DNA from: a virus
Lineage: Duplodnaviria; Heunggongvirae; Uroviricota; Caudoviricetes
Reading direction: 5' to 3' (one strand)
Length of the DNA: 64,000 nt
IMG/VR virus record: IMGVR_UViG_3300025000_000058
Shown: piece after piece, positions 22,195 through 50,502 of the stretch
Layout: every line of letters starts with the position of its first letter
How positions within the stretch are numbered: the first letter of the stretch is position 1
Position numbers and translations under genes: made by a program
The notes under the pieces: model-generated
What the model saw: the letters and a program-made list of their open reading frames with translations, nothing else
Database searches by the model: none
Told to the model about the DNA's origin: nothing

Positions 22195-22770
22195 TTATTT
22201 TTTAAAATAGTCGCCATTTTTAATATCTAATAATATTCTTCTTAATTCTCCATAGTATTGATATAATTTTGGATTAACATATTTTATCCACTCTTCTTTA
22301 TTGCCTTCTATTATTAATTTTCTTAATTTTGTTGCACTTATACCATTTTCTATTTGTCTTGGTATAATTAATTGACTTGTTAGTGGAATATCTTCTGGAT
22401 TAAACCATTCATACCTTTTTTCATCATTACCATAAATCATTATTTCTGGAATAGAACCAATATGTTTTGTTATAGTGTCCATTAAGTATTTACCCCACTT
22501 ACCACCCTCAACATCATCTTCATGAGTTAAATCATCTAATGGTAATATATTTAATTTATTATGATAAATTTCTTTTTGGAATACCTCATATATCATACCT
22601 GTTCTTACATAGACATGAAAAGGATTTCTTTCAACTCCTTCTAATTGTGCAGAACCTACAACAACTAAAAATTTATCACACATACTAAGTCCCAAATTAA
22701 TCATTTCTTCATGTTTTATTGTTAACATTTGAAATCTTCCAATGCAAAATCCTGTTTTATATTTTTTCAT
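22195..22770 (-). CDS. natV: nicotinamide-nucleotide adenylyltransferase (NMNAT, NadM/NatV-like)
   Basis: The likely start is MKKYKTGF, with AGGAGG 9 nt upstream. FCIGRFQMLTIKH matches the archaeal/phage NMNAT GRFQPxHxGH nucleotidyltransferase motif, and ISATKLRKLI matches the ISGTxIR motif. Confidence 0.7.
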   Translation of the reverse strand: MKKYKTGFCIGRFQMLTIKHEEMINLGLSMCDKFLVVVGSAQLEGVERNPFHVYVRTGMIYEVFQKEIYHNKLNILPLDDLTHEDDVEGGKWGKYLMDTITKHIGSIPEIMIYGNDEKRYEWFNPEDIPLTSQLIIPRQIENGISATKLRKLIIEGNKEEWIKYVNPKLYQYYGELRRILLDIKNGDYFKK

Positions 22771-23014
22771 TAATATAATCCTCCTTCTATTTAAATTTAT
22801 CATAACAAATATGCCAACCACATATCTTACATGTTGCAGATACTTTTACCCCAGTTTTAAATCTCCAATTATATCTCTTATATTCGTATTCACGTTCTTC
22901 GTATTCCCATTGATGTTTGCAAAAACATGATCTAATATAATTTACAATATTTCTAAATCCCATTATGTTTTATCACCTACTTAATATTTTATATCCTCAA
23001 TTAAGATAAGAGAT

Positions 23015-23566
23015 TTACTCTCCTATCTTCTCCTCGCCCATTTTACCAACATAAGTTGCTATTTCCAATAACTCTTTATCATTATATCTTTTATACAAAT
23101 CATTAATCCAATTATTATATTTGCTACTATAATCTTCTATCATATCCGAATTAACTGCATTTTCCATTATTGCTAAATATAATTTTCTTGGCATATTAGC
23201 ATATCTCAATGTTTTAACTATATTTGTTATAGATTCTACTCCAACTATAGTTATCATATTACTTTCAAACATTGTATCTTTTCTTTCATCTTTATATTTT
23301 GTAGGGTCAAATACTAAAGTAAATATCATTTTATTTTCATATGTTATTATTGGTAGTAAATACATATTTTCTTTTATAATATATACTTTTACATCGTTAT
23401 TTGTTGATAGCAATTCTTTTTCTTCCATTGTCATATTTTTTAAATATATACTTATTGCATATCCTCCACCATATAATGTTTCAAATACTGCACCATCAGA
23501 TATATTATCTGGTTTTTCAAATAAGGTATATTGCTGTCCAACTGCTATAACATGCAATTTACTCAT
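23015..23566 (-). CDS. hypothetical protein (start revised to MSKLHV...)
   Basis: ATGA start/stop overlap with the upstream gene at 23563-23566. Strong RBS GGACAAGGAGGA. Confidence 0.45.
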   Translation of the reverse strand: MSKLHVIAVGQQYTLFEKPDNISDGAVFETLYGGGYAISIYLKNMTMEEKELLSTNNDVKVYIIKENMYLLPIITYENKMIFTLVFDPTKYKDERKDTMFESNMITIVGVESITNIVKTLRYANMPRKLYLAIMENAVNSDMIEDYSSKYNNWINDLYKRYNDKELLEIATYVGKMGEEKIGE

Positions 23567-23895
23567 TCCTCCTTGTCCCATTTTGATTTTGTTAAAGCAA
23601 ATCTTATTTCTAAATCTGGAGTTACATAACTTCCACAAACACTAATATAAATTCTACATATTTCAATAAACGTATTTATCCCTAAAGGAAATTCATAAAC
23701 AATTTTATCTGGATCATCACATGTATGACAATATTTTCCTTGTATGAATCCTCTGCCTTCTAATAAATTACTTTCAACTTCTAAACAAGCTAATATTTCT
23801 TTCCCGTCAGGTAAATTAAATAGATGTTTTTCAGCATTTAATTTCGTCATAGTAATTGGATTTGATTTTTTAAAAAACAAATCAGATTGATACAC
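23563..23895 (-). CDS. hypothetical protein
   Basis: 110-aa ORF. Confidence 0.4.
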   Translation of the reverse strand: MYQSDLFFKKSNPITMTKLNAEKHLFNLPDGKEILACLEVESNLLEGRGFIQGKYCHTCDDPDKIVYEFPLGINTFIEICRIYISVCGSYVTPDLEIRFALTKSKWDKEE

Positions 23896-23971
23896 CTCCC
23901 TACAAAAAAGTGTTATGTGTATTTATAATTATATTATAACACATAACACTTTTAATTGCAAGTATAAAATA

Positions 23972-24628
23972 CTATAGTTTTATTTTTAAATACATTTCAT
24001 CTAATTCTTTCTTAAATCTATCCTCTAAATCCTGAACACTTTCTTTTTCTCTAAATTGATTCCTTGATTTAATGTCCATTTTTTTTAATTTATTCCATAA
24101 ATCGGGATAATACATATATAAATTTCTTAATTCTCTTAAACTAGAAAAAGGACAACACCAGCAACTTACTCTATTAAATTTTGTATATAGTCCATTCCAA
24201 TCAAATCCTTTATCGTAACAATATTTAAGTGCTTCACCCTCTGTCATTTCCCAGTCAATTAATGGATATCTTTTTAGTTTATTATCTTCAATTCTTTGCA
24301 TTTCATCCATAGCAATTCCTATGTATTGTATATAATTTTCATTACCATATTTTTTATCTAAATATGATTTTATTATATTTCTTTTTAATACAGTAGCACA
24401 CCATTTATTTTGACTTTGCGAAGCCCATGCATAACCTTTTTGCCCTTTGTATTTACCTTTTGTTTTTTCATGCTTAAACATCCAATAATCATATGTTTTA
24501 TTACGTAATATTTTAATTGGTATGTCTATGTATTGTTCGATTTTTTTAATATGCTCATAAAGCTGTGGAAACTCCTTTGTTGTATCTGCAAAAATTATTT
24601 CATCTATTTGCATAGCTTTTTCATGCAT
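23972..24628 (-). CDS. PAPS-reductase-like / adenine-nucleotide alpha-hydrolase-family protein (C-terminal region; no SGGxDS P-loop seen)
   Basis: YPLIDWEMTEGEALKYCYDKGFDWNGLY...RVSCWCCP resembles the C-terminal part of phage PAPS-reductase-like proteins. An in-frame stop lies 33 nt upstream of the ATG, so no N-terminal extension is available. Confidence 0.35.
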   Translation of the reverse strand: MHEKAMQIDEIIFADTTKEFPQLYEHIKKIEQYIDIPIKILRNKTYDYWMFKHEKTKGKYKGQKGYAWASQSQNKWCATVLKRNIIKSYLDKKYGNENYIQYIGIAMDEMQRIEDNKLKRYPLIDWEMTEGEALKYCYDKGFDWNGLYTKFNRVSCWCCPFSSLRELRNLYMYYPDLWNKLKKMDIKSRNQFREKESVQDLEDRFKKELDEMYLKIKL

Positions 24629-24730
24629 TAAAAGTAAAAGAGCACTTGAATCTTTGTCAACCTCCCGAAAAACTAACTATATGTTTCACAGGTAAATCAC
24701 ACCCTTTCCCCTATAATAATAAATTATCTA

Positions 24731-25060
24731 TTACTGTTCATCATCATCTTCTTCTTCTAATTCGCATTCTTCTCTTTCACTTAAACAATAATCACACAAT
24801 GTATCTCCATTTTCATCATTATATGGTTGATCATACCACCAACCACACTCATCACATTGAAATATTTCATTTTCAATTGCTTGCAATGTTTCATCAGTTA
24901 TATTACATATTGTGTATTCTACATCAAATCTATCAAATAATTTTGATATTGCATCAGCGATATTTTGTGTAGTACCTTGTAAATCTTCAATTAATTCTTC
25001 AATTTCTTCACTTGTTAAAGTTATTTTATTACTTTTCATTATTATCCTCCTTATTTTCAA
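24731..25060 (-). CDS. acidic protein with C-terminal zinc ribbon
   Basis: CDECGWW...CDYC. 109 aa, highly acidic tail. Confidence 0.4.
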   Translation of the reverse strand: MKIRRIIMKSNKITLTSEEIEELIEDLQGTTQNIADAISKLFDRFDVEYTICNITDETLQAIENEIFQCDECGWWYDQPYNDENGDTLCDYCLSEREECELEEEDDDEQ

Positions 25061-25168
25061 CTGCTTTCATTTCCTTTTGAAATGCTTCACATGTATCATA
25101 ACATTTTTCTGTTTTAGTCAATTTAAAATAACTGCAATTCCAGCAGGGGCATTGTATTTGAGTCATTT

Positions 25169-25483
25169 TTATCTTTCACCTCTTTTATTCTTTACTGGTT
25201 TCTCTTTATATTCTAATATTTCAATTATATTAACAATATTAACATTATCTGCTTTAACCCAATTGCTTTCATCGTCACACAATACGAATAAACAATTTCT
25301 ATCATCAATGCCACCATTAACCCAACCTTGGCACATACTATATGTTCCATTGTCATTGATTTTCCAGTATTTAATATATCTATCTTGCACTTCATCATAA
25401 GTATAATATTTTTGATTAGTCAATTTATTTAAAAGCACTTGTTCTTCAGTATATGTTTTTTGTTCTTGGTTTTGGTTTTGCAT
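25169..25483 (-). CDS. hypothetical protein
   Basis: 104-aa ORF. Confidence 0.4.
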   Translation of the reverse strand: MQNQNQEQKTYTEEQVLLNKLTNQKYYTYDEVQDRYIKYWKINDNGTYSMCQGWVNGGIDDRNCLFVLCDDESNWVKADNVNIVNIIEILEYKEKPVKNKRGER

Positions 25484-25504
25484 TTTATTTCCTCCTTATT
25501 ATTT

Positions 25505-25822
25505 TTATTTTTGTGTTGATAATTTATTTACATCATACTCATTTTTTGCTTTTAATATTTCTGACATATGTTTTATTATTTCATTTTCATTTAATTTTAA
25601 AGTTGCTTTAATCAGATTTTTATATAATTTTAAATTTTGCATAACAAATACATTATCTTCTGTTGTAGTTTGATTTAATATATTTGCAACAAGGACTTCT
25701 TTCATTATATCTAATACAACTTTTTCATTTTCTTCTATTTTATTTTCACTGATATGCTCGTTATAACATTCATTAACAATATTAATAATTTCTTTTTTAA
25801 TATTTACTAATTCTGTACCCAT
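25505..25822 (-). CDS. hypothetical protein
   Basis: 105-aa ORF. Confidence 0.4.
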   Translation of the reverse strand: MGTELVNIKKEIINIVNECYNEHISENKIEENEKVVLDIMKEVLVANILNQTTTEDNVFVMQNLKLYKNLIKATLKLNENEIIKHMSEILKAKNEYDVNKLSTQK

Positions 25823-25902
25823 TTTATTATATCTCCTTTATTCTTAGGTGTTATAATATAATAATTATAACACCCATTATTTTTGGTATTTTTATAAATT
25901 AT

Positions 25903-27624
25903 TTATAAGCTACTTAATACTCTGCCTCTGATATCTGCTAAACTATCATCTCTTAATAATTTGCCATCAACAAATACTTCTTCCAGTAAATCATCTGCTC
26001 TAAATAGAGCTTGTTGTGCAATTGATAATCCATCAATATATGTTATTTCATTTGTTGTTGAATCTTGAAGTACAACAACTCTGCCTTTTTGTGATTTTTT
26101 GATTTTGTCGAGATCAGTTTTCGGATTTTTAAAAATCAGTTTTTCTTTTCCATTTATTACTACGTGTGTTGCTTTAATAGCGATCATAAATGTATCTCTA
26201 CTATAATAACCTAGTGAATATGAACCTACACCAAATATAACATTTTCACTAGAAAATCCTTTTTGTTCTAGTTTTTTAAATATTTCTTCTGCTCTTTCTG
26301 GATTGATGCTGTCACCATATATAAGTGAAATATGTGAATCTAATACTTTATATCCTTTAGAATTAATTGTACCACCAAATATATCCCATAGTGATTCTAT
26401 TGAACCTTTTTGTTCTATAGTCAATTCTACTTCTTCACAACTTATTACCTGTGTATAATCAATATAATAATATTGTTTATCATACCTGTTCCATTCAAAT
26501 TCGACAATTATTTTATATATTTTATTATTATATTTGAAATACCCTTCATTTTTATCTACTCCATATTCTCCATGAGGTGTTTCATCTCTTACTTCTTCTT
26601 CTAAATATTCTTTCATCGTTTTAATACAATCATCTAATGTTTTACAATATTTATCATTTGTAAAATCTTCAACAATCACATTACCACAAATAATGTCAAC
26701 TGGATTGCCCGTATCTGGTCTTACGACCAGTTTACCATTTCTATTCATTATAATTTCTTTTAATTTTGGAATAATATTACCAATAACATTCCAATAATCA
26801 TATCCATCTGATACAATACTAACAATACCTTCAGGTACGATTTCAGTAATCATTTTTTTATAATATTTTAAATCATCCTCATATTGGCATTGAATCGAAT
26901 GCTCAGAAGCGAGTACGCTTGAAAATACTAGCTCTTCTTCAACATTGGCATTATAGTAATGCTCTAAATACTGAGTGCTTGGTATAGTATCTGAGCCTGT
27001 GAAATATAGTAAATGTCCTGCCCCTGTTGTTATTGCATCTTCATTGCAACCCATTCCTCTATAACTGAAGTTGTGACATTGCCATTTAATATGTTCTTTA
27101 CTATCGCATGTTTTTTCAGCCCATTTTTCACATATATCTCTATATTTTTTTACTATTGTTGTAGATGTTATTACTTTCCACATTGAAACACTTATAAGTG
27201 TTTCTAAATAATTTGTTAACCAATGAAATTCATTATTAGTATTTTCAATTGTAAACAATGGTGTTTTAATTGGTGCTAAAGTACCTTCTTTAAGAGCACG
27301 TATTTTAATTGGCAAATACCCTAAATCATGTAATGCTTCAATATGCTTAGTATCTGCACAATTATCCCCTAAAGTGTATTTAATAATTCTTTTATATTCT
27401 GTAATTACTTCTTCTTTGTTTCTACTAAAGAAATTTTCATTAAAGTATTCAATCAAATATTCTTTTATAAAACCTTGCAAACCAAAGAATACTACTTCAT
27501 TAATATCTTTTAATCTTGTCCCTCTTGGAGTAAATGTAGAATATGTTTTCTCAATTCCTTTTTCAGTCATAATTCTGTGAGATATTTTATAACAATCTAC
27601 TAATAACATTGGATTATATTTCAT
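25903..27624 (-). CDS. nadV: nicotinamide phosphoribosyltransferase (NAMPT, NadV-like)
   Basis: 573 aa. The N-terminal MLLVDCYKISH and overall length and architecture match NAMPT/PBEF. Conserved GTDT-like and phosphoribosyltransferase regions are present. Confidence 0.85.
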   Translation of the reverse strand: MKYNPMLLVDCYKISHRIMTEKGIEKTYSTFTPRGTRLKDINEVVFFGLQGFIKEYLIEYFNENFFSRNKEEVITEYKRIIKYTLGDNCADTKHIEALHDLGYLPIKIRALKEGTLAPIKTPLFTIENTNNEFHWLTNYLETLISVSMWKVITSTTIVKKYRDICEKWAEKTCDSKEHIKWQCHNFSYRGMGCNEDAITTGAGHLLYFTGSDTIPSTQYLEHYYNANVEEELVFSSVLASEHSIQCQYEDDLKYYKKMITEIVPEGIVSIVSDGYDYWNVIGNIIPKLKEIIMNRNGKLVVRPDTGNPVDIICGNVIVEDFTNDKYCKTLDDCIKTMKEYLEEEVRDETPHGEYGVDKNEGYFKYNNKIYKIIVEFEWNRYDKQYYYIDYTQVISCEEVELTIEQKGSIESLWDIFGGTINSKGYKVLDSHISLIYGDSINPERAEEIFKKLEQKGFSSENVIFGVGSYSLGYYSRDTFMIAIKATHVVINGKEKLIFKNPKTDLDKIKKSQKGRVVVLQDSTTNEITYIDGLSIAQQALFRADDLLEEVFVDGKLLRDDSLADIRGRVLSSL

Positions 27625-28021
27625 TATTTTTTCTCTCCTTATTAAAATATTTTTTATATCTTTCTTTTCTAATTTTATTGCATAATTCTAATAATTCTTT
27701 ATCTATTTCTATATGTTTCCATGTTATTCTCTTGTTTTTATGATTTATTATTGGTAGATTTTTAGGATTTGGTATAAAAGCAACTGCTATTAATCTATGT
27801 ACCAAGCATGATTTTCTTTTTCCGTCTTTTTGCAATTGTACATACTCATAACCATTTGGATATAAGTTTATTTTAAGTATTCTTCCTAGTATTTTTCTTG
27901 TTGTATTTTTACTAATTACAATTCTATCCAAGCTTCTAACCCTGCCATGATTAGATACTTGATAACTACCTTCATATCCAATAATATCTTTCCATATTTC
28001 CTTTTCAAATTCTTCTTCCAT
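27614..28021 (-). CDS. HNH homing endonuclease with NUMOD4 motif
   Basis: WKDIIGYEGSYQVSNHGRVRS (NUMOD4) followed by HRLIAVAF...INHKNK (HNH_3). The stop of NAMPT overlaps the start of this gene. Confidence 0.8.
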   Translation of the reverse strand: MEEEFEKEIWKDIIGYEGSYQVSNHGRVRSLDRIVISKNTTRKILGRILKINLYPNGYEYVQLQKDGKRKSCLVHRLIAVAFIPNPKNLPIINHKNKRITWKHIEIDKELLELCNKIRKERYKKYFNKERKNNEI

Positions 28022-28047
28022 AGCTACTCCTTAATATTTTATCTTCT

Positions 28048-28911
28048 CTAATTTATTTCATTATATTCATCATAGTACATCCATCTTAAAGGTTCACCTG
28101 TAATTAAATGTTTACCTGCTGATTTTCTTTTGCCATTACAAACTTTATCTACACGTAAACCAAATTTTTTTCTTAAATAAAAAGCAGACTCGTAAATTTC
28201 CAAAGTATTTAAACAAATAACTTTCTTTTTGTTTTTTCCTCTATTGTCATTTTTAATTATTATTTTATTATTTTGATAATTTTCATAATAAGCAAATCTA
28301 TATCCACCATGTATTCTTCCATCATTACAACTTTTCCAAATATGTTGATGTAATGTATTTAATTTTATACTTGCGTCTGTAATACTATCAAATGTTTCAT
28401 GTGTATCCAAATTAATTACTTTTCTTTTTTTAGTTTTTAAATAGTCTATAAATTTTTTAGTTCTTATTAATTTATAAATTAAATTATTTTCTTTATATGT
28501 CTTTTCTCTTTTCTTTGCAGATTGACTTAATTTTTGCTTAGTAATATTTGATTTAAGCTTACCTTTATTTGCTTTACTTATTTTCATTTTAGTTATAGTT
28601 GAATGTGTGCCTGAAGTATTACCACCATTTTGTATGTTATAGCCATAATTTATATTAGTAGTATTACATTTTTTTATATATTCTATTTCTAAATTTTCTG
28701 CTTCTTTTTTTGTTAATTTTTCATGTAATATTTCATGATTAAAATTATTCCATTTATATTTTTTTATGGCATTATAAAAATAAATACATTCTTTATAACC
28801 TTCACCATTCCTCCATCTATCATTAGGTTTCTGACAAGTTATACCTATGTATTTTTTATTATTAATTTTATTAGTGTGAACATACAATATATATTTATTA
28901 TTTTCTTCCAT
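28048..28911 (-). CDS. GIY-YIG homing endonuclease with NUMOD3 repeats
   Basis: The true start is probably MEENNKYILYVHTNKINNKKYIGIT (GIY-YIG). It is followed by NGYNIQNGG and the NUMOD3-like TKMKISKANKGK. The ORF-track 5-prime extension to 29019 is probably read-through. Confidence 0.8.
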   Translation of the reverse strand: MEENNKYILYVHTNKINNKKYIGITCQKPNDRWRNGEGYKECIYFYNAIKKYKWNNFNHEILHEKLTKKEAENLEIEYIKKCNTTNINYGYNIQNGGNTSGTHSTITKMKISKANKGKLKSNITKQKLSQSAKKREKTYKENNLIYKLIRTKKFIDYLKTKKRKVINLDTHETFDSITDASIKLNTLHQHIWKSCNDGRIHGGYRFAYYENYQNNKIIIKNDNRGKNKKKVICLNTLEIYESAFYLRKKFGLRVDKVCNGKRKSAGKHLITGEPLRWMYYDEYNEIN

Positions 28912-29134
28912 TTTATTTATCCTTAATATTTTATATTCTCCAATCTCCTCTATCTCAAATGCCACGCCCTTAACATCCCATCTAACGAACCATTTTCTCC
29001 TAAAAACAACCATCCACAAAATACAATAAAACCAGTTGTAACCAAATGACTTACTTCAATTTTCCCAATTATCTTAGTATTCAACAAAGCATCTGTTTTA
29101 TTTAATATTTTACTCATTAAATTATTCCTCCTTT

Positions 29135-29542
29135 TTAACCAATCCTTTTCTCCATTTCTTCAACAACTTTCAATAAACAATTATAAGCACTGCTTAAACC
29201 AGCTCGATCATCAATAAGCATATTGTAATAAATCTTTCTTCCCTTAAAATTCATTGTTTCATCTGCATTTTCATTTATCTTATCATATGGAATATCATTT
29301 TCATTTAAATACTTTTTAATAACATCATATTTATCTTCTGTGTTACAGGTAAACACTATTAATGTAGTATCTAATTTCTTTAATCTTCTTAATAAATTAA
29401 TTACATTGTTATAAGAATATCCTTTGTTTCCATAGTCATACACTGTATTATCATAATCATATGCCACAATTAAACCATCATATTTTTCCCATTCTTCAAT
29501 CAATCTTTTGATTACATTATTATCATCAAGAAAATAGTCCAT
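29135..29542 (-). CDS. HAD-superfamily phosphatase/nucleotidase-like protein
   Basis: GLIVAYDYDNTV gives HAD motif I (DxDxT). Small 135-aa capless HAD, like phage 5-prime nucleotidases. Confidence 0.5.
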   Translation of the reverse strand: MDYFLDDNNVIKRLIEEWEKYDGLIVAYDYDNTVYDYGNKGYSYNNVINLLRRLKKLDTTLIVFTCNTEDKYDVIKKYLNENDIPYDKINENADETMNFKGRKIYYNMLIDDRAGLSSAYNCLLKVVEEMEKRIG

Positions 29543-29573
29543 ATTTATATTCTCCTTAATACATTCTATTATT

Positions 29574-30248
29574 TTAACTTATTAATGGTTTTTGCAAATA
29601 TGTGTTATCTATTTCAAATCCCATATATTTTCTATTCATATCCTTTGCTACTTTAGCAACAACACAACTTCCCATAAATGGATCAAGTATTACTTCATTT
29701 TCTTTACTACAAGCTTCTATAATTGGTCTAACAATCTCTTCTGGTTTTTGTGTTGGGTGTATTTTATTTTTACCTCTTGGCATTACTACATCTATAACAT
29801 TTCTTTGTCCATATTTTTCTAATTTTTTATATCCACCTTTTCTAAACATAAGTAAAAATTCACATGATTTATAAAAATATGAAGATGGTACAGCATTTGA
29901 TTTATTCATTATTAATATCTCACAAAATATAAATCCAGCTTTTTCACATTCTAACCAAATTTCTCTCATATTTCTGTCATTGGTCATAATTAATATATAT
30001 GTTTTATCCTTCATTATAGGATATAACAATGGTATCCATTCACTAAATTTAGGTGTTTTATATTTAAAACATTCTCCAGTTGTTGTAAATGGATTAACTC
30101 CTTCATTATTCCTTAATAAAGATTTTTTTCTACCCCCTGCTACTAATTTATATGGAGGGTCAGTAAATATCATATCTATACTTTCTGGAACAATTAATTT
30201 TAATCCTTCTATTGCATCCATATTATATACTTTATTTAATTCTAACAA
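29574..30248 (-). CDS. DNA N6-adenine/N4-cytosine methyltransferase (beta class)
   Basis: Motif IV IFTDPPY precedes motif I ILDPFMGSCVV. TTG start with GGAGG 7 nt upstream. Confidence 0.8.
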   Translation of the reverse strand: MLELNKVYNMDAIEGLKLIVPESIDMIFTDPPYKLVAGGRKKSLLRNNEGVNPFTTTGECFKYKTPKFSEWIPLLYPIMKDKTYILIMTNDRNMREIWLECEKAGFIFCEILIMNKSNAVPSSYFYKSCEFLLMFRKGGYKKLEKYGQRNVIDVVMPRGKNKIHPTQKPEEIVRPIIEACSKENEVILDPFMGSCVVAKVAKDMNRKYMGFEIDNTYLQKPLIS

Positions 30249-30261
30249 TTATTTACCTCCT

Positions 30262-31098
30262 TTATAATTCAATAATATCAAATATATGCATTTTTTCAAT
30301 TGATATTTTTTCTTTATCTAAAATACTATTTGTAGTAAATACTTTATCAATTAAATCTGTTTGAAACAAATCTCCTTTAAAAATACTATATTCACAATGA
30401 GCAACAAATAAATATACTTCTTTTGCTCCCAATTCTTTTAATTTCTTAGCACTTATAATAAACGTCCCAGCATAACTTGATATATCATCCAAAATAATAA
30501 CTTTAGCATCTTTTATTAAATTAATATCCCCTACAATATCTAATTTATCAATTTTACCTGTGTTGAAGTCTCTTGATTTATACCCCACTAAATATTTAAA
30601 ACCTTTAATATTTTTATGTGCTTTCGCACTTCCATCATCAGGATAAAATAATATATCTTTTTCTTTATCAAATCCAATTTTATTCATTACTTCACCTAAC
30701 AATTCAATTGTTGGGTATACTGCTGTACTTTTATTCAATAAAGCCATTGATACATTAGAATGTGGACTAATGACTACAACACTGTTAAAATTTAATGAAT
30801 TAATAAAATTACAAATATATTTTAAAGTGAATGCTGAAGTTGTTTCATAATACCCTTCAACTCTATCCATTCTTGAGTATGGTAAATATAATATCTTTAA
30901 ATCACAGTCAACTCCTAAATTATTTTCATCTATATAATTTTTAAGAAACATTAATTTGATTAAATCACTTTCATCTTCATATTTAAATGTAATTTCATTA
31001 TTTATATTTATATCTCTCCAAATTTGTTCATTATCTATTCTAATTTCTCCATTAGGGTATTTTTCAAAATTAAGTCTTTCACCATTTAATAAAATCAT
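30262..31098 (-). CDS. prs: ribose-phosphate pyrophosphokinase (PRPP synthetase)-like
   Basis: VIILDDISSYAGTF PRPP-binding loop. Two-domain phosphoribosyltransferase-type architecture of about 280 aa. Confidence 0.65.
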   Translation of the reverse strand: MILLNGERLNFEKYPNGEIRIDNEQIWRDININNEITFKYEDESDLIKLMFLKNYIDENNLGVDCDLKILYLPYSRMDRVEGYYETTSAFTLKYICNFINSLNFNSVVVISPHSNVSMALLNKSTAVYPTIELLGEVMNKIGFDKEKDILFYPDDGSAKAHKNIKGFKYLVGYKSRDFNTGKIDKLDIVGDINLIKDAKVIILDDISSYAGTFIISAKKLKELGAKEVYLFVAHCEYSIFKGDLFQTDLIDKVFTTNSILDKEKISIEKMHIFDIIEL

Positions 31099-31121
31099 TT
31101 ATATTTTATCCTCCATTATTT

Positions 31122-31514
31122 TTAATCATTATTTACATAATCAGCTACTTGAGATAATGCTTGAAACCATTTACCACCATTCTGCTCTACCATTTTACCT
31201 ACTTCTACCAATGATTTCATTTGTCTTATACTAAAATACACACCTTCGTCTTCTGATAAGATACAGAATAATGTTTTTTCTGGTCTTTTATTAGAATCAT
31301 CTACTACTTCTGCAATACTATATACTCCACTCATTTTAGGTGTAATGACATATAAACAATAATCACAACTTTCTCTTTTTTGTCTTTCTAATTCTTGGCA
31401 TTCAGGAGTCCAATCTTCTACTACTGGATTAAAATAATCAATTTTTAATAAAGATATTAATTGTTCTCTCCATTTACTTTCATTACAAGTCCCACCCAAA
31501 AATATTTCTTTCAT
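31122..31514 (-). CDS. nucleoside 2-deoxyribosyltransferase-like (Rossmann/flavodoxin-like) protein
   Basis: Probable start MKEIFLGGTCNESKW, matching the xIFLAGp...W N-terminus of the nucleoside deoxyribosyltransferase/LOG-like superfamily. GGAGG RBS. Confidence 0.4.
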   Translation of the reverse strand: MKEIFLGGTCNESKWREQLISLLKIDYFNPVVEDWTPECQELERQKRESCDYCLYVITPKMSGVYSIAEVVDDSNKRPEKTLFCILSEDEGVYFSIRQMKSLVEVGKMVEQNGGKWFQALSQVADYVNND

Positions 31515-31573
31515 TTTTCCTCCTTTTAAAAATGGGTGTTTTATTTGCACCCATTTTTATTATTTATATTTAA

Positions 31574-32410
31574 TTATTTTACTTGCATCATTGGCATAAC
31601 TCCATTGTCACCCATCATATATTGAGGTACTTTAGAACCACCTTTTTCCCATGCTTTAATCCATTCTTGTTGTGCTTCAATTTTTCTAAGTTCTAATAAT
31701 GTTGGAGTTATTTGTTCTTTTTGTAGTCTTAATGATTCAGCTTCAGCTCTAGCTTGCTCTACTTTTTGCTTTGCTTCTGCTTTAATTCTTTCTAAATCAT
31801 TATTTGCTGTTAAAGCATTTTGTTGTGCAGTTTGTTTTGCTTCAATAGCCTCATTAAAACCATCACTAAAATCAAAATCTGTAACATTAAACATCGTGAT
31901 TACCATTTTATAAGCATTAAGTTTACTTTGTAATAAATTTTTCATTTCTTGACTTACTATTTCTCTTTTAAGAACTAAATCTTCAGCAGAATATTTTGCT
32001 GTACTTGCTTTCACACACTCTTGTATAGCAGGACTCACAATTTTATCATTATATGATAAACCTACTTCTTTATAAAGTTTATTTACTGTAGCAGGATCAA
32101 TTTTATATACTACTGCAATTTTACTATGTGCTTTCTGCACATCTTTTGATACCGCTGTACAAATAGCTTCTACTTTTTGTTCTCTAATTTCAATCATTTC
32201 AAATGAATCTCTAATTGGTAGTCTTAAATGAATACCTTCACTTAAAACATTATTTTGAACTGCTCCAAAATGCATTTCTACCCCTTTATGTCCTGCTGGT
32301 ACAGTAACCCAAGGTTTAACTATTGGTAATATTACCAATCCTGCACATAATACAACTCCACCTAAAATAAGATTTCCTTTTACACCTAAATTTTTAATTG
32401 CATTTAACAT
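31574..32410 (-). CDS. SPFH/band-7 (prohibitin/stomatin-like) membrane protein
   Basis: N-terminal TM helix, an SPFH core (HKGVEMHFGAVQ...IAVVYKIDP) and a C-terminal coiled coil (AEAKQKVEQARAEAESLRLQ). Confidence 0.7.
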   Translation of the reverse strand: MLNAIKNLGVKGNLILGGVVLCAGLVILPIVKPWVTVPAGHKGVEMHFGAVQNNVLSEGIHLRLPIRDSFEMIEIREQKVEAICTAVSKDVQKAHSKIAVVYKIDPATVNKLYKEVGLSYNDKIVSPAIQECVKASTAKYSAEDLVLKREIVSQEMKNLLQSKLNAYKMVITMFNVTDFDFSDGFNEAIEAKQTAQQNALTANNDLERIKAEAKQKVEQARAEAESLRLQKEQITPTLLELRKIEAQQEWIKAWEKGGSKVPQYMMGDNGVMPMMQVK

Positions 32411-33055: not shown

Positions 33056-33772
33056 TTAGTCTTTTAGTGCTTCGTAATCAATTAAATCAATATTAAAACT
33101 GTCTTGAAACAAAATAGGATCATAGAATAAACTAAATGTTTTTTTAAATTTATCTATATTAACTTTATCAATATTAGTAAATGTAAAATAAAAATTAATT
33201 CCTTCTAATATTAATTGTTGTATATTATACCAAAATAAAATAGGATTATAATCCATTCCTGTATTCTTTTTAAATTCTTCAAGATTAGTACCTTTAACAC
33301 TTACCGCATAAAGACAATTAGGTTTATTTATTTTTCTTAAATATTCCTTGTTATACACTTTTTCAATGCATAATAAATCACTATGAAATACTTTATCACT
33401 TGGTAATATATCAATAATCTCATGCCAATTTTCTAAATATAAAGCAGGACTTCCACCCATTAAATGAAATACATCTTGTTTTGATTCTATAAAATAATCA
33501 ATTAATTCATTAGTTGTAAATGTTTTATATTTACCCCATATACCGTCTGGCGTAACATAACAATATGGACATTTTAATGAACAAGCGTATAATTGTACTA
33601 CAAATTGATTATTACCATTCATATTTAATCTACTTTTACATATACTAGGAAACTTATCATATCCTCCACCAGATTTATATATATTACATTTTCTAAAGTA
33701 TCCACCATGTAATATATCATTTTTATCAACATCTCTTAATTGTTTCTCACATAAAGGCACTACTTTCCACAT
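33056..33772 (-). CDS. radical SAM enzyme (QueE/NrdG-like small activase type)
   Basis: CSLKCPYC is the CX3CX2C cluster motif. HLMGGSPAL is the glycine-rich SAM motif. 238 aa. Confidence 0.5.
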   Translation of the reverse strand: MWKVVPLCEKQLRDVDKNDILHGGYFRKCNIYKSGGGYDKFPSICKSRLNMNGNNQFVVQLYACSLKCPYCYVTPDGIWGKYKTFTTNELIDYFIESKQDVFHLMGGSPALYLENWHEIIDILPSDKVFHSDLLCIEKVYNKEYLRKINKPNCLYAVSVKGTNLEEFKKNTGMDYNPILFWYNIQQLILEGINFYFTFTNIDKVNIDKFKKTFSLFYDPILFQDSFNIDLIDYEALKD

Positions 33773-35994: not shown

Positions 35995-36642
35995 TTAATC
36001 CCCCATGACATTCTTTTTATATTCTTCATATTTTGAATTGTTTATTATATCACCATATTCAACTTCAGCTTGATTCTCTAAATTTTCTGCTTTAATTTCT
36101 GCAACATAATACTTTTTATCAATCTCTTCTTCTATTTTGTCAATCTCAGTTGTATCAATACTTAAATCGAGATTTAAGTTTTCATTTATTTTATTTACAG
36201 ATACAGCAAATGAATTCTTAATCTTCAATGTATCAATTTTCAATTTAATATCATTTATTTTGTTAGCAAAAATTATTAATTGTTTTTGTAATTTATTTTC
36301 TACTTGATTTATTAATTCAATATTTTTATTATAGATAATTACTTTTTCTTTATTACTTTCCATTAACACAAAACTGTGTTGTGCCAAATCTTCTTTTTTA
36401 TCATTAATTGCTTTTTTTGTTGCTTTATCTAATTGTAATATAATATCTTCCGTTTTGTCTTTAATATCTATTAACCTTCTTTTCTCCGCTTGTATATTAA
36501 TTAATTCATCATTGGCTTTTTTATATGCTTTATTAATTTTTTCATACTCATAATTAAGACATTCAATTTTATCTTCTAATTGTCTAACAAGTTTATTTCC
36601 TCTAGTTACAAATAATCTTGTCAATTTTTTAAATAATTTCAT
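35995..36642 (-). CDS. coiled-coil protein
   Basis: 215 aa. Heptad-rich throughout (NDELINIQAEKRRLIDIKDK...). Confidence 0.45.
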   Translation of the reverse strand: MKLFKKLTRLFVTRGNKLVRQLEDKIECLNYEYEKINKAYKKANDELINIQAEKRRLIDIKDKTEDIILQLDKATKKAINDKKEDLAQHSFVLMESNKEKVIIYNKNIELINQVENKLQKQLIIFANKINDIKLKIDTLKIKNSFAVSVNKINENLNLDLSIDTTEIDKIEEEIDKKYYVAEIKAENLENQAEVEYGDIINNSKYEEYKKNVMGD

Positions 36643-42083: not shown

Positions 42084-42455
42084 TTAACAATAACAAGATT
42101 CTCTATCTATTTTATCTAACTTATCTTTATCAATAATTAAATTAACTTCTAATCCCAATATATTTCTTAAATCAAAATCTTTTTTCCTATCAAATTTACT
42201 TCCCCAATATCCTACTTCTTTTGCTTGTAAATATATTCTATTTTCATCGCTTATTACTCTTATACTTATTATTTGAAAATAATGTTCTTTATTTTCATAA
42301 TTAATACTTAATTTACTATTAATTGTTATATTTTCTTCAGTTACAATATTAATAATAGTCCCCAATTTATCTTGAATTTCTGCTCCTATTATTTTAAATG
42401 TATTCATATTATTTATCCCCTTTACTTTTTTATAATAATCGTAATCCTTTAACAA
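42084..42455 (-). CDS. hypothetical protein
   Basis: 123-aa ORF. Confidence 0.4.
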   Translation of the reverse strand: MLKDYDYYKKVKGINNMNTFKIIGAEIQDKLGTIINIVTEENITINSKLSINYENKEHYFQIISIRVISDENRIYLQAKEVGYWGSKFDRKKDFDLRNILGLEVNLIIDKDKLDKIDRESCYC

Positions 42456-42999
42456 ACATTTTAGCTTGCTCCCTTTTCATTGGCTTTAAACCAATTGCTG
42501 TAATACTACCCTTTGGCACTTCAGTTAATCCATTATCTCTTACACTATAAAAATCATATGGGAATTTATTTAATAATTTTTCTATTGTTTTTGTATTTGC
42601 TTTTAATACAATTTTTTTCATCCCATTGTCAACCCATTCACTATATACTAAATCTTCACGCTCTCTCCAATTACTAGGTATGTCAATTGTTGTTAATGTA
42701 TTTATATGTCCTACTGATACTGCTATTTTTCCAACACTCATATTTAAATCCGTATTAACAATATAATATTGAAGTACTTCTTGATTTCTCCTATATTCTT
42801 CATCAATCTTTGTTGATTTTTTTTCATCTTCAAAATATGCATTACAAAGTAATCTCAATACTTCCATTCCCTCAATTCCTGTTACTACTTTACTTTCTAA
42901 TTTAACTACTCCATCTTCTTTTATACATCTTCCTAATTGTCCTACTTTTTGAGAAGTATTGTATTTACAAAGCATCCAATCACAAATAATTTCTGGCAT
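42430..42999 (-). CDS. PTH2-family peptidyl-tRNA hydrolase domain protein with N-terminal Cys-containing extension
   Basis: VNTDLNMSVGKIAVSVGH aligns with PTH2 TDLGMGKGKIAAQCSHA, and VRDNGLTEVPKGSITAIGLKP aligns with TDAGRTQIAPGSQTVLGIGP. Confidence 0.6.
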   Translation of the reverse strand: MPEIICDWMLCKYNTSQKVGQLGRCIKEDGVVKLESKVVTGIEGMEVLRLLCNAYFEDEKKSTKIDEEYRRNQEVLQYYIVNTDLNMSVGKIAVSVGHINTLTTIDIPSNWREREDLVYSEWVDNGMKKIVLKANTKTIEKLLNKFPYDFYSVRDNGLTEVPKGSITAIGLKPMKREQAKMFVKGLRLL

Positions 43000-43659: not shown

Positions 43660-45636
43660 TTATTTTAACAAGCTCATAAATTGCTGTTCATTAATTATAA
43701 TACTATTCTTACTTTCTTCTGCTTTTTTCAACGTACCTCCTGGCTTATCTCCGACAATAACATAATTTACTTTTTTATTAAAACTCTTACTAAACACTCC
43801 ACCATTTGTAACAATTAATTCTTCAAAATATTTTCTTGGTTGTGATAACACTCCAGTTATTGTAAATACTAAACCTTCAATTCTACTATCACTTTTTATA
43901 TTGTTCTTTATCTTGTTTTCTTCATTATTAAATCTTAAATATTTTAATATCGCATATAATTGTAATAAATTATTTTGATTATTAAAATATTCATTTATAG
44001 ATCGTGCTGTTTCTATTCCTATGTCTTCAACATCTAATAATATATTTATTTTTGCATTAACAATATAATTAATATCGTTATTGAAATAATTGCATAATTT
44101 CTTAGCTGTAGTAATGCCAACATGATTTATACCAAGACCATAAATCAATCTATATAATTCCGTATCTTTTGATTTTTCAATTGATTTTAATATTTTATTG
44201 TAAGATTTCTCTCCAAACCCCTCTAACCAAAGTATTTCTTCTTTATATTGTTCAAGATTATATACGTCTGCAAACTCTGCAATAAAACCTTCTTCAACAA
44301 ATTTACTTATTGTAGCATCAGCAAGTCCTTTAATATTTAAAGCATCTTTCTCAATAAAATGACTTATTTTGTCTACTAATTTACCAAAGCAATTATTATT
44401 AGTGCATACCAATACAGTTGCTTCCTTCAACAATTTAAATTCTACATTATATCCACAATCAGGACAAAACTTTGGAAATTCAATTGTATTACTTCTTGTT
44501 AGATTGTCTTCTATTTTAGGAATTATAGAACCACGTTTACTAATTATAACAGTATCTCCATATCCTAATTGTAATTTTTTAATATAGTCTATATTATGCA
44601 ATGTAGCACGTTCTACTATTGTTCCATCAATCTCAATTGGTTCAAAGTGTCCTGTAGGATTTACAAAACCCCCTCTTGACGTATTCCATAATATATCAAT
44701 TAATTTTGTTTCATATACATCATCTTGAAATTTAAATGCAATTGCATCTAATGGATATTTACTTGTTTTTCCTAGTGATTCTGAATAAGCAATATCATTA
44801 TATTGAATCACGACTCCATCGTAACTAATACCTTTATCTTCTGCAATTTTTTTAACTTCATCAATACATTTTTCAGCATTAAATATCCATCCATTTGTTA
44901 TAATTATACTGGGTGCAGTTTGAAATCCTAATTCTAACAACCATTCTAATTGCTGTGTTTTTGTAGTAAATTTCATACCTTCAACAACTGATATTTTAAA
45001 TGCACGAAAATGTAGCTTTCTTTCTGCACATTTTCTACTGTCTAAATTTTTTACACTTCCTGATGCCAAATTTCTAGCAGTTTTATATTTTTCATTTTCA
45101 GAAAGACCCTCATTAATTTCTTCAAAATCTTTTAAATATATGTATGATTCACCTGCTATTTCCAAATATCCTTTAAATGGTATTTTTAAAGGCACATTTT
45201 TATATGTTCTAATATTATGCGTAATATCTTCTTGTCCTCTTGTTGAAGCTTCAATAAGAATACCATTATTATATTTAATATTTGTTGTAAGTCCATCTAT
45301 TTTTAAACTAGCATAACTTTCTTTTCCTTTAATAAATTCTTCAACACCTTTAATTGTCTTTTCTTTCTTTAAAGATATTAAGGGAATTGTATGTTTAACT
45401 TTTTTAAATTCATCAATCATTTCATAGTTAACTTTTTGCGTTGGGCTATTGCATAATACAAAATCCAATTTTTTCTCCAACATTTCTAATTCTTCATATA
45501 ATAAATCAAATTCTTTATCACTCATAATAGGTTGTGCTAAAGCATAATAACTAAAACAAGCGTTGTTTAATAGTTCAACTAAATATTTTATTCTTTCTTT
45601 TTTTATTGTTCTATCTTTATTTGTCATCTGTGTCAT
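43660..45636 (-). CDS. ligA: NAD+-dependent DNA ligase (LigA)
   Basis: Ia domain (YYALAQPIMSDKEFD), adenylation motif I KIDGLT, Cys4 zinc finger CPDCG...CTNNNC, HhH region and C-terminal BRCT (ITGVLS...VIVGDKPG). 658 aa. Confidence 0.9.
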   Translation of the reverse strand: MTQMTNKDRTIKKERIKYLVELLNNACFSYYALAQPIMSDKEFDLLYEELEMLEKKLDFVLCNSPTQKVNYEMIDEFKKVKHTIPLISLKKEKTIKGVEEFIKGKESYASLKIDGLTTNIKYNNGILIEASTRGQEDITHNIRTYKNVPLKIPFKGYLEIAGESYIYLKDFEEINEGLSENEKYKTARNLASGSVKNLDSRKCAERKLHFRAFKISVVEGMKFTTKTQQLEWLLELGFQTAPSIIITNGWIFNAEKCIDEVKKIAEDKGISYDGVVIQYNDIAYSESLGKTSKYPLDAIAFKFQDDVYETKLIDILWNTSRGGFVNPTGHFEPIEIDGTIVERATLHNIDYIKKLQLGYGDTVIISKRGSIIPKIEDNLTRSNTIEFPKFCPDCGYNVEFKLLKEATVLVCTNNNCFGKLVDKISHFIEKDALNIKGLADATISKFVEEGFIAEFADVYNLEQYKEEILWLEGFGEKSYNKILKSIEKSKDTELYRLIYGLGINHVGITTAKKLCNYFNNDINYIVNAKINILLDVEDIGIETARSINEYFNNQNNLLQLYAILKYLRFNNEENKIKNNIKSDSRIEGLVFTITGVLSQPRKYFEELIVTNGGVFSKSFNKKVNYVIVGDKPGGTLKKAEESKNSIIINEQQFMSLLK

Positions 45637-48177: not shown

Positions 48178-48837
48178 CTAATATTTATATAACCATTTCC
48201 ACCAACCAGTATTACTTGCCATATTTAAACATTCCCATTTACATTTATCATATTGTCCTTTTATATTTACATGATAATGACCAAAATAGTATTTTCTTAT
48301 ACTCGGATACATTTCTAATATTCTTGACAATGCAACTCTACTACAATCTTTATGTTTTTGAGTATCTTTGAATCTATCTCCTAAATCAAATTCTAATGGA
48401 CATGTATGTGATATTACGATATCTATTTTTGTATTTGTTGAGGGAAGATTCTCAAAATCTTTTTGCGATATAACTTCTTGCGGAAACCAGTCTACTCCAA
48501 TTGTTCTTGTATTTTTATCAATTGATTCAGCACCACCCATAAACAGTACAACTTTCCCATTGGGAAGAGTTAATGTAGAACCACGTTTCATATAAAATAT
48601 ATTTGGTGCAATTTCATTATTTGTAAGAGTATTTAAATAATCATGGTGTTCATGATTTCCATCTGCAAAATATATTTTACAATCACCGTTTTTAATTTTA
48701 TCTAAAGAACATTCTTTATGATATGGCCATATTCCAAAGTCTCCACATTGTAATATAATATCTGGTTTTTTCTTATTTATTAAAGTATTTAATTTATTCC
48801 ATTCTGCATGAATATCTCCAACAATTATTAATTTCAT
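48178..48837 (-). CDS. calcineurin-like metallophosphoesterase
   Basis: MKLIIVGDIHAEW (motif I GDxHG), QCGDFG (GDxxDRG-like) and GNHEHHD (GNHE). Confidence 0.75.
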   Translation of the reverse strand: MKLIIVGDIHAEWNKLNTLINKKKPDIILQCGDFGIWPYHKECSLDKIKNGDCKIYFADGNHEHHDYLNTLTNNEIAPNIFYMKRGSTLTLPNGKVVLFMGGAESIDKNTRTIGVDWFPQEVISQKDFENLPSTNTKIDIVISHTCPLEFDLGDRFKDTQKHKDCSRVALSRILEMYPSIRKYYFGHYHVNIKGQYDKCKWECLNMASNTGWWKWLYKY

Positions 48838-48853
48838 TTATTCATTTCTCCTT

Positions 48854-49444: not shown

Positions 49445-49567
49445 TGTTTTTACTCTCCTTTTTATTTGATTTATTAAGTAATTTTTAATTCATTTTTAAT
49501 TAAAGCATTATTTTTCCAATGAATATCTGTTTGCACATGATTTTTTCTAACATACTTAACAACTGAT

Positions 49568-50119: not shown

Positions 50120-50122
50120 TCC

Positions 50123-50485
50123 TTATTCTTTTTTACTTTTACACTCATATTCAACACATTTCCCTAATCTTCTACTTATAATCTCTCTTAAAAACTTTTG
50201 CTCCCAATCCATAAACCCAATTGGGTGCTTTGTTAATTCACAATATTTATTCACAGCTATTTCATGCTCATTAAATATAAAACATATTTCATCAATAGAC
50301 AATTCACCTCTGGATACTAGCACTCTTAGTGCTTGAATGATATTATTTGTTGATACTTTTATAATTATATCTCTATTATTTTGTTCAATTTTCTTTTTAT
50401 ATTGGTCTATTATAAACTGTGCATTTTCAAGAAGATTAAAATCTGAATATGGATTACCTTGTTCACAATATATAATTTTTAGCAT
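50123..50485 (-). CDS. hypothetical protein
   Basis: 120-aa ORF. Confidence 0.4.
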   Translation of the reverse strand: MLKIIYCEQGNPYSDFNLLENAQFIIDQYKKKIEQNNRDIIIKVSTNNIIQALRVLVSRGELSIDEICFIFNEHEIAVNKYCELTKHPIGFMDWEQKFLREIISRRLGKCVEYECKSKKE

Positions 50486-50502
50486 AATTTTTTATCTCCT
50501 TT

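Follow-up and report, generated by a model that had tools for sequence, protein, structure and literature searches.

The record IMGVR_UViG_3300025000_000058 of the IMG/VR database, a virus of the Caudoviricetes, was analysed over a stretch of 64,000 nucleotides (the window, to which all positions refer), with a focus on a minus-strand unit of eight genes at 25903–31514 whose core genes are assigned here to NARP1, a phage pathway for the reconstitution of nicotinamide adenine dinucleotide (NAD+). The region very probably represents a NARP1-type operon with an ancestral Adps–HAD–Namat arrangement, interrupted by inserted genes. The window has a G+C content of ~25% and appears to belong to a lytic groundwater phage; a 124 kb contig from a groundwater metagenome (PRJNA268031) is 99.99% identical to it, and a megablast search of its 22–32 kb section against 50,697 phage records returned 0 matches, leaving it without a close relative among sequenced phages. 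Read along the minus strand, the unit comprises predicted genes for a deoxyribosyltransferase-like protein of 130 aa (31122–31514; Nuc_deoxyri_tr2, PF15891, E 1e-11), the ADP-ribose pyrophosphokinase Adps (30262–31098; Pribosyl_synth; phrog_619, E 4e-70), an N6/N4 DNA methyltransferase with a DPPY motif (29574–30248; N6_N4_Mtase, E 2e-33), a capless, BT0820-like HAD phosphatase (29135–29542; phrog_1238, E 2e-26, with a DxDxT motif and no Pfam match), a small open reading frame (ORF) of 55 aa (28950–29117; predicted as a gene on every source contig, no family match), a free-standing GIY-YIG homing endonuclease (28048–28911; GIY-YIG and NUMOD3; phrog_314, E 7e-23), a NUMOD4-HNH homing endonuclease (27614–28021; NUMOD4, E 2e-16, and HNH phrogs) and the nicotinamide ADP-ribose transferase Namat (25903–27624; NAPRTase and NAMPT_N; phrog_448, E 2e-188). 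All ORFs named in the first-pass annotation, which had described positions 22195–31514 as an NAD+ module, were present where it placed them, every one on the minus strand and each with a family match.

The limits of the unit are marked by two palindromic hairpins. The upstream hairpin (31527..31559; stem AAAAATGGGTG/CACCCATTTTT with a T run) is terminator-like on the minus strand, where it lies 3′ of the stop codon of a Band_7 gene and is followed directly by a ribosome-binding site (AGGAGG) and the ATG at 31514. The downstream hairpin (25847..25874; 11-bp stem GGTGTTATAAT/ATTATAACACC) lies directly 3′ of the Namat stop codon, with no clear T run behind it on the minus strand. The eight genes are spaced 13–38 nt apart, with one 11-nt overlap (HNH/Namat), and are probably co-transcribed with the deoxyribosyltransferase-like gene first; a promoter scan was uninformative in this AT-rich DNA (95 sites versus 98 expected). 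The whole of 22195–31514 does not hold together as one module, since the hairpins bracket the eight-gene unit only and an NMNAT-like gene (22195–22770) lies outside it. This gene is found 3.1 kb downstream of the unit, beyond nine ORFs of the ORF list, of which one alone received a family assignment (PAPS-reductase-like).

The protein encoded at 25903–27624 had been read as a nicotinamide phosphoribosyltransferase (Nampt) of the kind found in the NadV/NatV pair of phage KVP40, and thus as part of a NARP2-type pathway, but it falls in the Namat clade and carries the adenine-clamp signature instead. Its best structural matches (PDB 9W5X and 9W5W, 550 bits, versus 198 bits for human and other true Nampts) are those of Namat from the Bacillus phage SPbetaL1, the enzyme of the second NARP1 step (PMC12774641). 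Namat and Nampt share a catalytic core and are separated by further features (PMC12774641). In an alignment and neighbour-joining tree of the window protein with seven Namats and three Nampts (from the KVP40-like phage phiST2, KP15 and phiCbK), the window protein was placed within the Namat clade, apart from the three Nampts, and its identity was 48–55% to SPbetaL1-like Namats, 40% to the Felix-O1-type protein of REP9 and 30–33% to the Nampts of phiST2, KP15 and phiCbK. The Namats of Kirov, Tsamsa, A511 and CR3 match it over its full length.

The features that distinguish the two enzymes point the same way. The adenine-clamp signature is GSYSLGYYSRD, positions 3 and 7 being Tyr as in the published clamp that selects ADP-ribose pyrophosphate (ADPR-PP), whereas the same columns in the NARP2-type Nampts of phiST2 and KP15 read GGGLLQ. 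Similarly, the selectivity-clamp loop (TPRGTRLKD) aligns with that of SPbetaL1 (TPRTSRVED) and keeps the stacking arginine R40, while the Nampt loop is 4–7 residues shorter than that of Namat. The counterparts of SPbetaL1 D13, Y15, F189, S190, R192, D215, A242, the catalytic His, R306, D308, G360, D361, G390, S391, R399 and D400 are identical in the window protein, and that of A362 is Ser, as in most Namats. Relative to SPbetaL1 there is an insertion of ~83 aa (residues 320–402), which was considered as an unusual trait and ruled out as such because it is common to many Namats, including those of vB_BcoS-136 and of a viral contig from IMG/VR (L007). No other Nampt-family gene was found in the window, so that the sole representative is of the Namat type and no Nampt of the KVP40 clade is present. 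Judged by sequence, the protein is a Namat, the nicotinamide ADP-ribose transferase of NARP1 step 2.

The gene at 30262–31098 had likewise been taken for a phosphoribosyl pyrophosphate (PRPP) synthetase (Prs) supplying the co-substrate of Nampt. Its product is 50–51% identical to the Adps proteins of SPbetaL1 (experimentally validated) and vB_BcoS-136, 30% identical to that of ICP1, for which a structure has been solved, and 20% identical to E. coli Prs, and it falls under every NCBIfam Prs cut-off (TIGR01251, 83.7 versus 113), with all Prs equivalogs far below. Residues R87, H121, D161, K185 (the catalytic Lys), D212 and D213 of ICP1 Adps correspond to R76, H113, D154, K174, D204 and D205 in the window protein, while the ICP1 aromatics F18 and F92 are replaced by Tyr. 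In the alignment the window sequence ends together with the other Adps proteins, whereas E. coli Prs runs on through an extra C-terminal segment, the alpha11–alpha12 filament/regulatory module, which by this alignment is gone from the window protein. On this strand Namat follows as the sixth gene downstream, within the ten-gene definition used by Osterman et al. The protein is identified from these comparisons as Adps, the ADP-ribose pyrophosphokinase of NARP1 step 1.

As one gene is a Nampt homologue of the Namat clade and the other a Prs homologue of the Adps type, the pair constitutes NARP1, which occurs in ~4% of sequenced phages (Osterman et al. 2024). By analogy with the homologues of SPbetaL1, Bas63 and ICP1, Adps would move pyrophosphate from ATP onto the terminal ribose of ADP-ribose (ADPR) to give ADPR-PP, and Namat would combine ADPR-PP with nicotinamide to yield NAD+ and pyrophosphate, such that both breakdown products of SIR2-, TIR- and SEFIR-type NADase defences would be turned back into NAD+. 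The general proposal of the first-pass annotation, a phage NAD+ reconstitution module of the kind that defeats NAD-depleting defences, is supported, and the core enzymes keep their catalytic residues. The more specific proposal was a NARP2-like salvage route as in KVP40, in which a phage Prs provides PRPP, a Nampt homologue makes nicotinamide mononucleotide (NMN) and an NMNAT converts this to NAD+. An NMNAT-like gene is indeed present 3.1 kb away, and SPbetaL1 Namat makes NMN from PRPP in vitro, roughly half as fast as human Nampt does (PMC12774641), so that a minor branch of this type is chemically possible. However, the Nampt homologue has the signature and clade of Namat rather than those of the KVP40/T4-like Nampts, the Prs homologue resembles validated Adps far more closely than Prs and fails the Prs family cut-offs, and the NMNAT-like protein has no Nudix domain, is encoded apart from the operon and shows no linkage to Nampt-family genes in other loci. 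In addition, none of 20,185 genomes surveyed by Osterman et al. carried both NARP1 and NARP2, and the window is in line with this exclusivity because it holds no KVP40-type Nampt. We therefore regard a NARP2-like route as very unlikely and retain NARP1 as the pathway type.

Between Adps and Namat lies the gene for the HAD phosphatase. Its product has HAD motifs I–IV (DxDxT, T/S, K and DD) and a Rossmannoid core, with D29, D31, T65, K103, D111 and D112 invariant, and its structure model (pLDDT 93) shows a capless HAD core. A sequence search against the PDB gave nothing significant and a profile search gave 2OBB (BT0820; E 0.007), the other relatives coming from fold searches, in which the best matches were 2OBB, 1XPJ, the phosphatase domains of Pnkp1 and T4 PNK, and AfhF. 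Identity between the window protein and BT0820, VC APC26283 (1XPJ), AfhF of phage HY126 (9IQW) and the T4 PNK 3′-phosphatase is 12–23%. BT0820 and 1XPJ are uncharacterised, whereas AfhF is a pentose-1,5-bisphosphate phosphatase that removes the 5-phosphate of arabinose-1,5-bisphosphate and T4 PNK acts on DNA and RNA 3′-phosphates. The motifs and the model indicate that the protein is a catalytically intact capless HAD phosphatase.

The genomic context of this phosphatase was examined in a pool of 121 HAD loci from viruses and bacteria, including 36 IMG/VR loci retrieved by a HAD alignment search and 80 loci from GTDB species genomes. In 78 of the 121 loci the fetched flanks contained a Prs-family gene together with a Nampt-family gene, mostly adjoining the HAD gene, and these were arranged in the orders Adps–HAD–Namat (50 loci, the commonest), HAD–Adps–Namat (14), Adps–Namat–HAD (9), Namat–Prs–HAD (4) and Namat–HAD–Adps (1). 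When the loci were clustered at 70% HAD identity, 22 of 40 clusters had at least one linked member. Within IMG/VR, Adps and/or Namat lie beside HAD in 16/36 loci and HAD abuts a Prs gene of canonical length in three more, while the HAD gene is placed between Adps and Namat in six (including L007 and a further contig, L009); among the GTDB loci, both partners are close to HAD in 61/80 and at least one in 66/80. The HAD gene is tens of bases from Adps/Prs or Namat in many loci, and there is a 4-nt overlap in L007. Linked loci come from Bacillota, Bacteroidota, Planctomycetota, Saccharibacteria metagenome-assembled genomes (MAGs) and unrelated phages. For example, phages of the Bastille group, which infect Bacillus and whose Adps genes are listed as NARP1 by Osterman et al., encode a HAD homologue directly after Namat (gp68–gp67–gp66 in Belinda). 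The suggestion that the HAD phosphatase is linked to the module is thus upheld, while its casting as a loose processor of by-products is not, as it is a strongly conserved companion of Adps and Namat. The same conserved linkage rules out the HAD gene as one of the invaders of the operon. No description of a HAD–NARP1 association was found in the searchable literature, where absence is no proof of unpublished status, and the linkage appears to be new to the literature.

These distributions bear on a further possibility, namely that the HAD protein acts outside the NAD pathway as a generic nucleotide or nucleic-acid end phosphatase (a 5′-nucleotidase or PNKP-like 3′-phosphatase) and travels as a passenger with auxiliary genes. 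Its fold relatives include the 3′-phosphatase domains of T4 PNK and Pnkp1 as well as deoxyribonucleotidases, some records annotate homologues as polynucleotide kinase or hydrolase, and 34/121 loci have no NAD-related partner in the DNA available. Set against this are the tight spacing to Adps/Prs or Namat, its recurrence in five gene orders across many phyla and unrelated phages, and the nature of the alternative neighbours, which are also ADPR-processing (Macro, NADAR); the identifiable HAD neighbours are NAD- or ADPR-handling genes. A passenger role is accordingly judged to be decidedly unlikely, and functional coupling of the HAD phosphatase to the NAD pathway is favoured as probable.

Several loci in the pool combine the HAD gene with other enzymes. 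In two IMG/VR loci (L036:9983-12748 and L037:9980-12572), HAD is followed after 3 nt by a Macro gene resembling Adpp, the ADPR-1″-phosphate phosphatase of the NARP1-AP system (E 4e-34), with a NADAR gene (Pfam E 1e-52) two genes on; there is no Adps or Namat within 10 kb in either locus, and the arrangement looks like an ADPR-processing cluster. The presence of both phosphatases side by side weakened the notion that HAD is a strict, mutually exclusive replacement of the Macro-type Adpp. NADAR genes also occur within or beside 11 HAD–NARP1 loci of bacterial genomes or MAGs, for example between Adps and HAD in three of them; they could be another accessory that recurs in the NARP1-like modules of bacteria. 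Of the linked Nampt-family genes, ~50 have the Namat signature and eight have Nampt-like GG motifs. For example, in four Mucilaginibacter loci the HAD gene stands beside a Nampt-type enzyme (GGALLQKVDRD) and a canonical Prs-like gene, and four other loci pair it with Nampt-type enzymes that have a Nampt-like motif (GGALLQKVDRD or GGILRNHSRD) in place of the clamp. The role of HAD may be common to PRPP-based and ADPR-PP-based routes.

Given its linkage and fold, the HAD protein would dephosphorylate phosphorylated ribose or ADPR species that feed the pyrophosphokinase step or need to be cleaned up from it. Candidate substrates are ADPR-1″-phosphate from aRES-type defences, 2′-phospho-ADPR from the cleavage of NADP+, and phosphomonoesters arising from the decay of the labile ADPR-PP; assignment to any particular one of these classes is tentative. 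The defence aRES yields ADPR-1P, which plain NARP1 is unable to use (bioRxiv 10.64898/2026.01.28.702374).

The retrieval of many HAD-linked modules from bacteria also raises the question of purpose. The same NARP1 chemistry could serve housekeeping, recycling ADPR, nicotinamide and NMN for the NAD-dependent ligase of the phage and for host metabolism rather than for counter-defence. Consistent with this, the phage encodes LigA, an NAD-dependent DNA ligase (43660–45636, minus strand; DNA_ligase_aden, E 1e-45) that had been noted at first pass and whose adenylation, OB, HHH_2 and BRCT domains are all above cut-offs, and which is a phage consumer of NAD+ that releases NMN. HAD-linked Adps/Namat modules from GTDB are, moreover, mostly found in Bacteroidota and Paenibacillaceae chromosomes or MAGs, and NARP1 has also been described in bacteria without an assigned physiological role (PMC12774641). 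On the other hand, deletion of NARP1 in Bas63 and FADO specifically sensitises these phages to NAD-depleting defences, the Adps clade was almost exclusively phage-borne in a published survey (Osterman et al.), and the module of Paenibacillus pini stands among phage-like genes beside an anti-defence gene of the Acb2/Tad1 type. In that chromosome (L047:6001-9570), the order is HAD–Adps–Namat and the module lies three genes upstream of the gene in question, a member of the Acb2/Tad1-hairpin family of anti-CBASS and anti-Thoeris sponges. A purely housekeeping function is considered unlikely for the window, and counter-defence remains the preferred purpose of its NARP1 genes.

The arrangement of the core genes in the window departs from that of other genomes. 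Adps and Namat overlap, lie at most ~120 bases apart or have the HAD gene alone between them in SPbetaL1, vB_BcoS-136, Belinda, the Felix-O1-like phage REP9 and L007, whereas in the window they are parted by 2.6 kb containing the methyltransferase, HAD, GIY-YIG and HNH genes and the small ORF. Comparison of gene orders indicates that the ancestral arrangement is a tight three-gene operon, Adps–HAD–Namat, an order found in many contigs of viral origin and in many genomes of bacteria. The methyltransferase gene has entered between Adps and HAD, and the small ORF, the GIY-YIG gene and a truncated HNH gene between HAD and Namat. The earlier view that homing endonucleases invaded the module, in which it also placed a DPPY methyltransferase, is thereby borne out, as comparative synteny shows insertion of both kinds of gene into a normally contiguous operon. 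Two of its details require correction. The HNH gene does not overlap the stop codon of the Nampt-family gene; both are on the minus strand, and it is the HNH stop that overlaps the Namat start by 11 nt. Nor is the insertion evidently recent: the G+C content of the endonuclease genes is that of their surroundings, and the five places returned for 11 contigs that encode an identical Namat all agree in gene order across the module, with no endonuclease-free variant of the phage found among these five.

The inserted genes differ in their state of preservation. The methyltransferase (PADLOC MTase_II, E 3e-40) had no tblastn match in the 36 IMG/VR HAD loci or phage Belinda, bacterial loci not being scanned, and the viral operons compared with it and with the GIY-YIG gene hold neither of the two at the corresponding sites. 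The GIY-YIG protein scores 21.5 bits against a Pfam cut-off of 22.6, with a weak NUMOD3 match, but its motifs (YILYV, YIGIT, R, E and N) are legible in the translation and the gene looks intact. HNH phrogs match the HNH product over residues 3–98 only; NUMOD4 and the first His are kept, likeness to homologues ends after ‘INHKN’, and the second half (‘DGNKKNN...NLEW’), which is kept in the homologue of L009, is absent with no remnant in other frames. The HNH gene is probably degenerate and its product inactive. Two unrelated contigs, L009 (whose copy is 41% identical) and L027, also carry a NUMOD4-type HNH gene just 5′ of Namat. In the Pectobacterium phages phiTE, CB7 and DU_PP_I/IV, an annotated HNH endonuclease gene divides Namat into pieces, and in Staphylococcus phage phiSNIID Namat matches in three pieces across 2.4 kb; such an interruption could be an intron, an intein or a split gene. 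The occurrence of HNH genes beside or within Namat in L009, L027 and the Pectobacterium phages shows that Namat genes are recurrent targets of homing endonucleases, and the idea of invasion holds on this ground as well.

The remaining members proposed for the module fared less well. The deoxyribosyltransferase-like protein belongs to a very large, well-conserved family of the DrHyd superfamily (6641 matches, with 65–75% identity among the best 120), and its gene was ruled out as part of the NAD module, since Adps or Namat was found within 6 kb in one of 80 homologous viral loci from IMG/VR; in Pseudomonas phage D6, it is ~58 kb from Adps and Namat. The NMNAT-like protein (22195–22770, minus strand, 191 aa) matches NMNAT families only (NCBIfam NadM, E 1e-12, below the cut-off; archaeal NMNAT, E 2e-11), with 2QJO, a NadM, as its best PDB match (E 2e-6), and has the motifs GRFQMLTIKH and ISATKLR and no Nudix domain. 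The archaeal-type NMNAT named at first pass is divergent, lies outside the unit and lacks the Nudix domain of NatV. Five homologues besides the window's own were found among 5.8 billion proteins, and one that is 46% identical lies in an RNR/ThyA cluster with no NARP1 nearby. It is plausible that the gene encodes a true NMNAT. In that case it may add a second entry to NAD+ from NMN and ATP, the weakest step of the proposed scheme, for which NMN could come from the NAD-dependent ligase, from pyrophosphatase-type NAD+ cleavage as by Metis, which converts NAD+ to AMP and NMN, or from residual PRPP-dependent activity of Namat.

Taken together, the HAD phosphatase could be a third NARP1 enzyme, not homologous to the Macro-type Adpp, that widens the range of substrates, forms with the stand-alone NMNAT a multi-branch repair kit against several modes of NAD+ destruction, and redefines the common form of the pathway in the bacterial loci retrieved; this extended model is speculative and, as a whole, rather doubtful. 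Several observations weigh against parts of the NARP1-type reading of the operon and its accessory genes. The clamp motif of the window Namat is off consensus, with Ser for Thr at position 9 and, at two variable positions, Leu (position 5) and Gly (position 6). The nearest characterised fold relatives of the HAD protein are phosphatases for the 5-phosphate of a pentose bisphosphate or the 3′-phosphate of nucleic acid, and none of them removes a 1-phosphate. The 34 HAD loci mentioned above are without a partner in the DNA available, the pairing of HAD with canonical Prs and Nampt means that its role may not be ADPR-specific, and the Macro gene beside it in L036 and L037 speaks against its being a mere duplicate of the ADPR-1P phosphatase already published. 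As many HAD–NARP1 modules are in bacterial chromosomes, counter-defence is not the sole possible purpose. Finally, the NMNAT-like protein is below every curated family cut-off (Pfam CTP_transf_like, 20.7 versus 21), has Thr where HxGH has its first His, and shows linkage to NARP1 in no other locus.

Other features of the window are as follows. The PAPS-reductase-like gene between Namat and the NMNAT-like gene (23972–24628, minus strand; phrog_424, E 2e-38) has SspD, of phosphorothioation, as its best PADLOC match (E 1e-14), and a PADLOC scan of the module proteins gave trivial matches only (methyltransferases and this SspD-like match). Upstream of the unit on the minus strand, 31574–32410, 33056–33772 and 35995–36642 encode Band_7/SPFH, radical-SAM (with a weak viperin-like PADLOC match) and PspA/IM30 proteins, respectively, and a variant contig (L043) is collinear with the window to 32382 and different beyond. 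A minus-strand cluster at 48178–52232 resembles RNA-repair genes and includes a Thg1-like tRNA-His guanylyltransferase (51462–52232), a tyrosine integrase/recombinase (50503–51444), an RNA ligase domain protein and a metallophosphatase. At 42430–42999 lies the gene for a PTH2 peptidyl-tRNA hydrolase, and no tRNA genes were found in the whole 64 kb. Further minus-strand genes encode an amidoligase_2 protein (919–2388) and a GGACT (gamma-glutamyl cyclotransferase-like) protein (about 3699–4097), with a second, faint amidoligase beyond the window on related contigs. Gene orientation (minus to plus) and GC skew change sign at about 52000–53500.

Depletion of NAD+ is among the commonest bacterial anti-phage strategies, and NARP1 is the main known means by which phages reverse it. 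Assigning the right pathway type matters for experiments, in which the substrates would be ADPR and ATP, not ribose-5-phosphate and PRPP. Specialists would find little out of the ordinary in the operon itself, and the comparative result is more useful: a small HAD phosphatase is found in or beside Adps/Namat operons from Bacillus phages to Bacteroidota chromosomes, whereas searchable papers give only a Macro-domain phosphatase in the accessory role, and the linkage offers this active field a concrete lead. If HAD widens the substrate range of NARP1, it would add another layer to the NAD+ arms race. NARP1 genes also emerge as recurrent landing sites for homing endonucleases.

Compared with the NARP1 systems described in the Bacillus phages SPbetaL1 and FADO, E. 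coli phage Bas63 and Vibrio phage ICP1 (Osterman et al. 2024; PMC12774641; PMC13586617), the window has core enzymes of the same clades, with the same catalytic residues, clamp signature and Adps Lys and acceptor residues, and both genes are likewise on one strand within a few genes of each other. It differs in the 2.6 kb that part the pair and, relative to SPbetaL1, in the Namat insertion common in other Namats and in the clamp substitutions given above. The NARP1-AP system of Vibrio phage Gary (Adps, Macro-type Adpp and Namat; bioRxiv 10.64898/2026.01.28.702374) is alike in having a phosphatase between or beside Adps and Namat, but that of Gary is a Macro domain and that of the window an unrelated HAD fold. 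Adpp, which is Poa1p-like, converts the aRES product ADPR-1″P to ADPR (bioRxiv 10.64898/2026.01.28.702374). The accessible part of the preprint's table gives Macro neighbours only and does not include Belinda, and the Macro-type examples in the accessible part of its Table S1 are phages of Vibrio, Pseudomonas, Acinetobacter and Pseudoalteromonas, all Pseudomonadota (bioRxiv 10.64898/2026.01.28.702374). The HAD type, in contrast, is found in Bacillus phages, Paenibacillaceae, Bacteroidota and the low-G+C groundwater phage of the window. By the preprint's table, aRES is most frequent in Bacillota and Bacteroidota (bioRxiv 10.64898/2026.01.28.702374), the phyla in which the HAD type occurs, and this bears on its candidate substrates. 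An Adpp profile built from 9 published sequences, the sensitivity of which is shown by its matches in L036 and L037 at E 4e-34, gave no match in the window at E <= 0.01 and no Macro gene in any HAD–NARP1 locus.

The NARP2 pair of KVP40, NadV (a Nampt) and NatV (an NMNAT–Nudix protein), is similar to the window in that Nampt-family and NMNAT-family enzymes occur in one genome. However, the Nampt-family enzyme of the window is of the Namat type, and its NMNAT-like protein is a single-domain protein without Nudix, is encoded at a non-adjacent site and is 23–30% identical to phage NatV/NadM proteins. RyDEP-NARP1 of mycobacteriophage DyoEdafos (bioRxiv 10.64898/2026.05.28.727677) is an earlier case of a NARP1 locus with an inserted accessory gene whose product makes ADPR from another ADPR-derived molecule; the accessory there is an RyR-domain glycosidase acting on 2′/3′cADPR, and no such gene turned up among the screened ORFs of the window unit. 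The core of the window is a further member of the known NARP1 pathway, and its departures from the systems described so far are a broadly conserved HAD accessory, disruption by mobile genes and an extra, stand-alone NMNAT-like gene.

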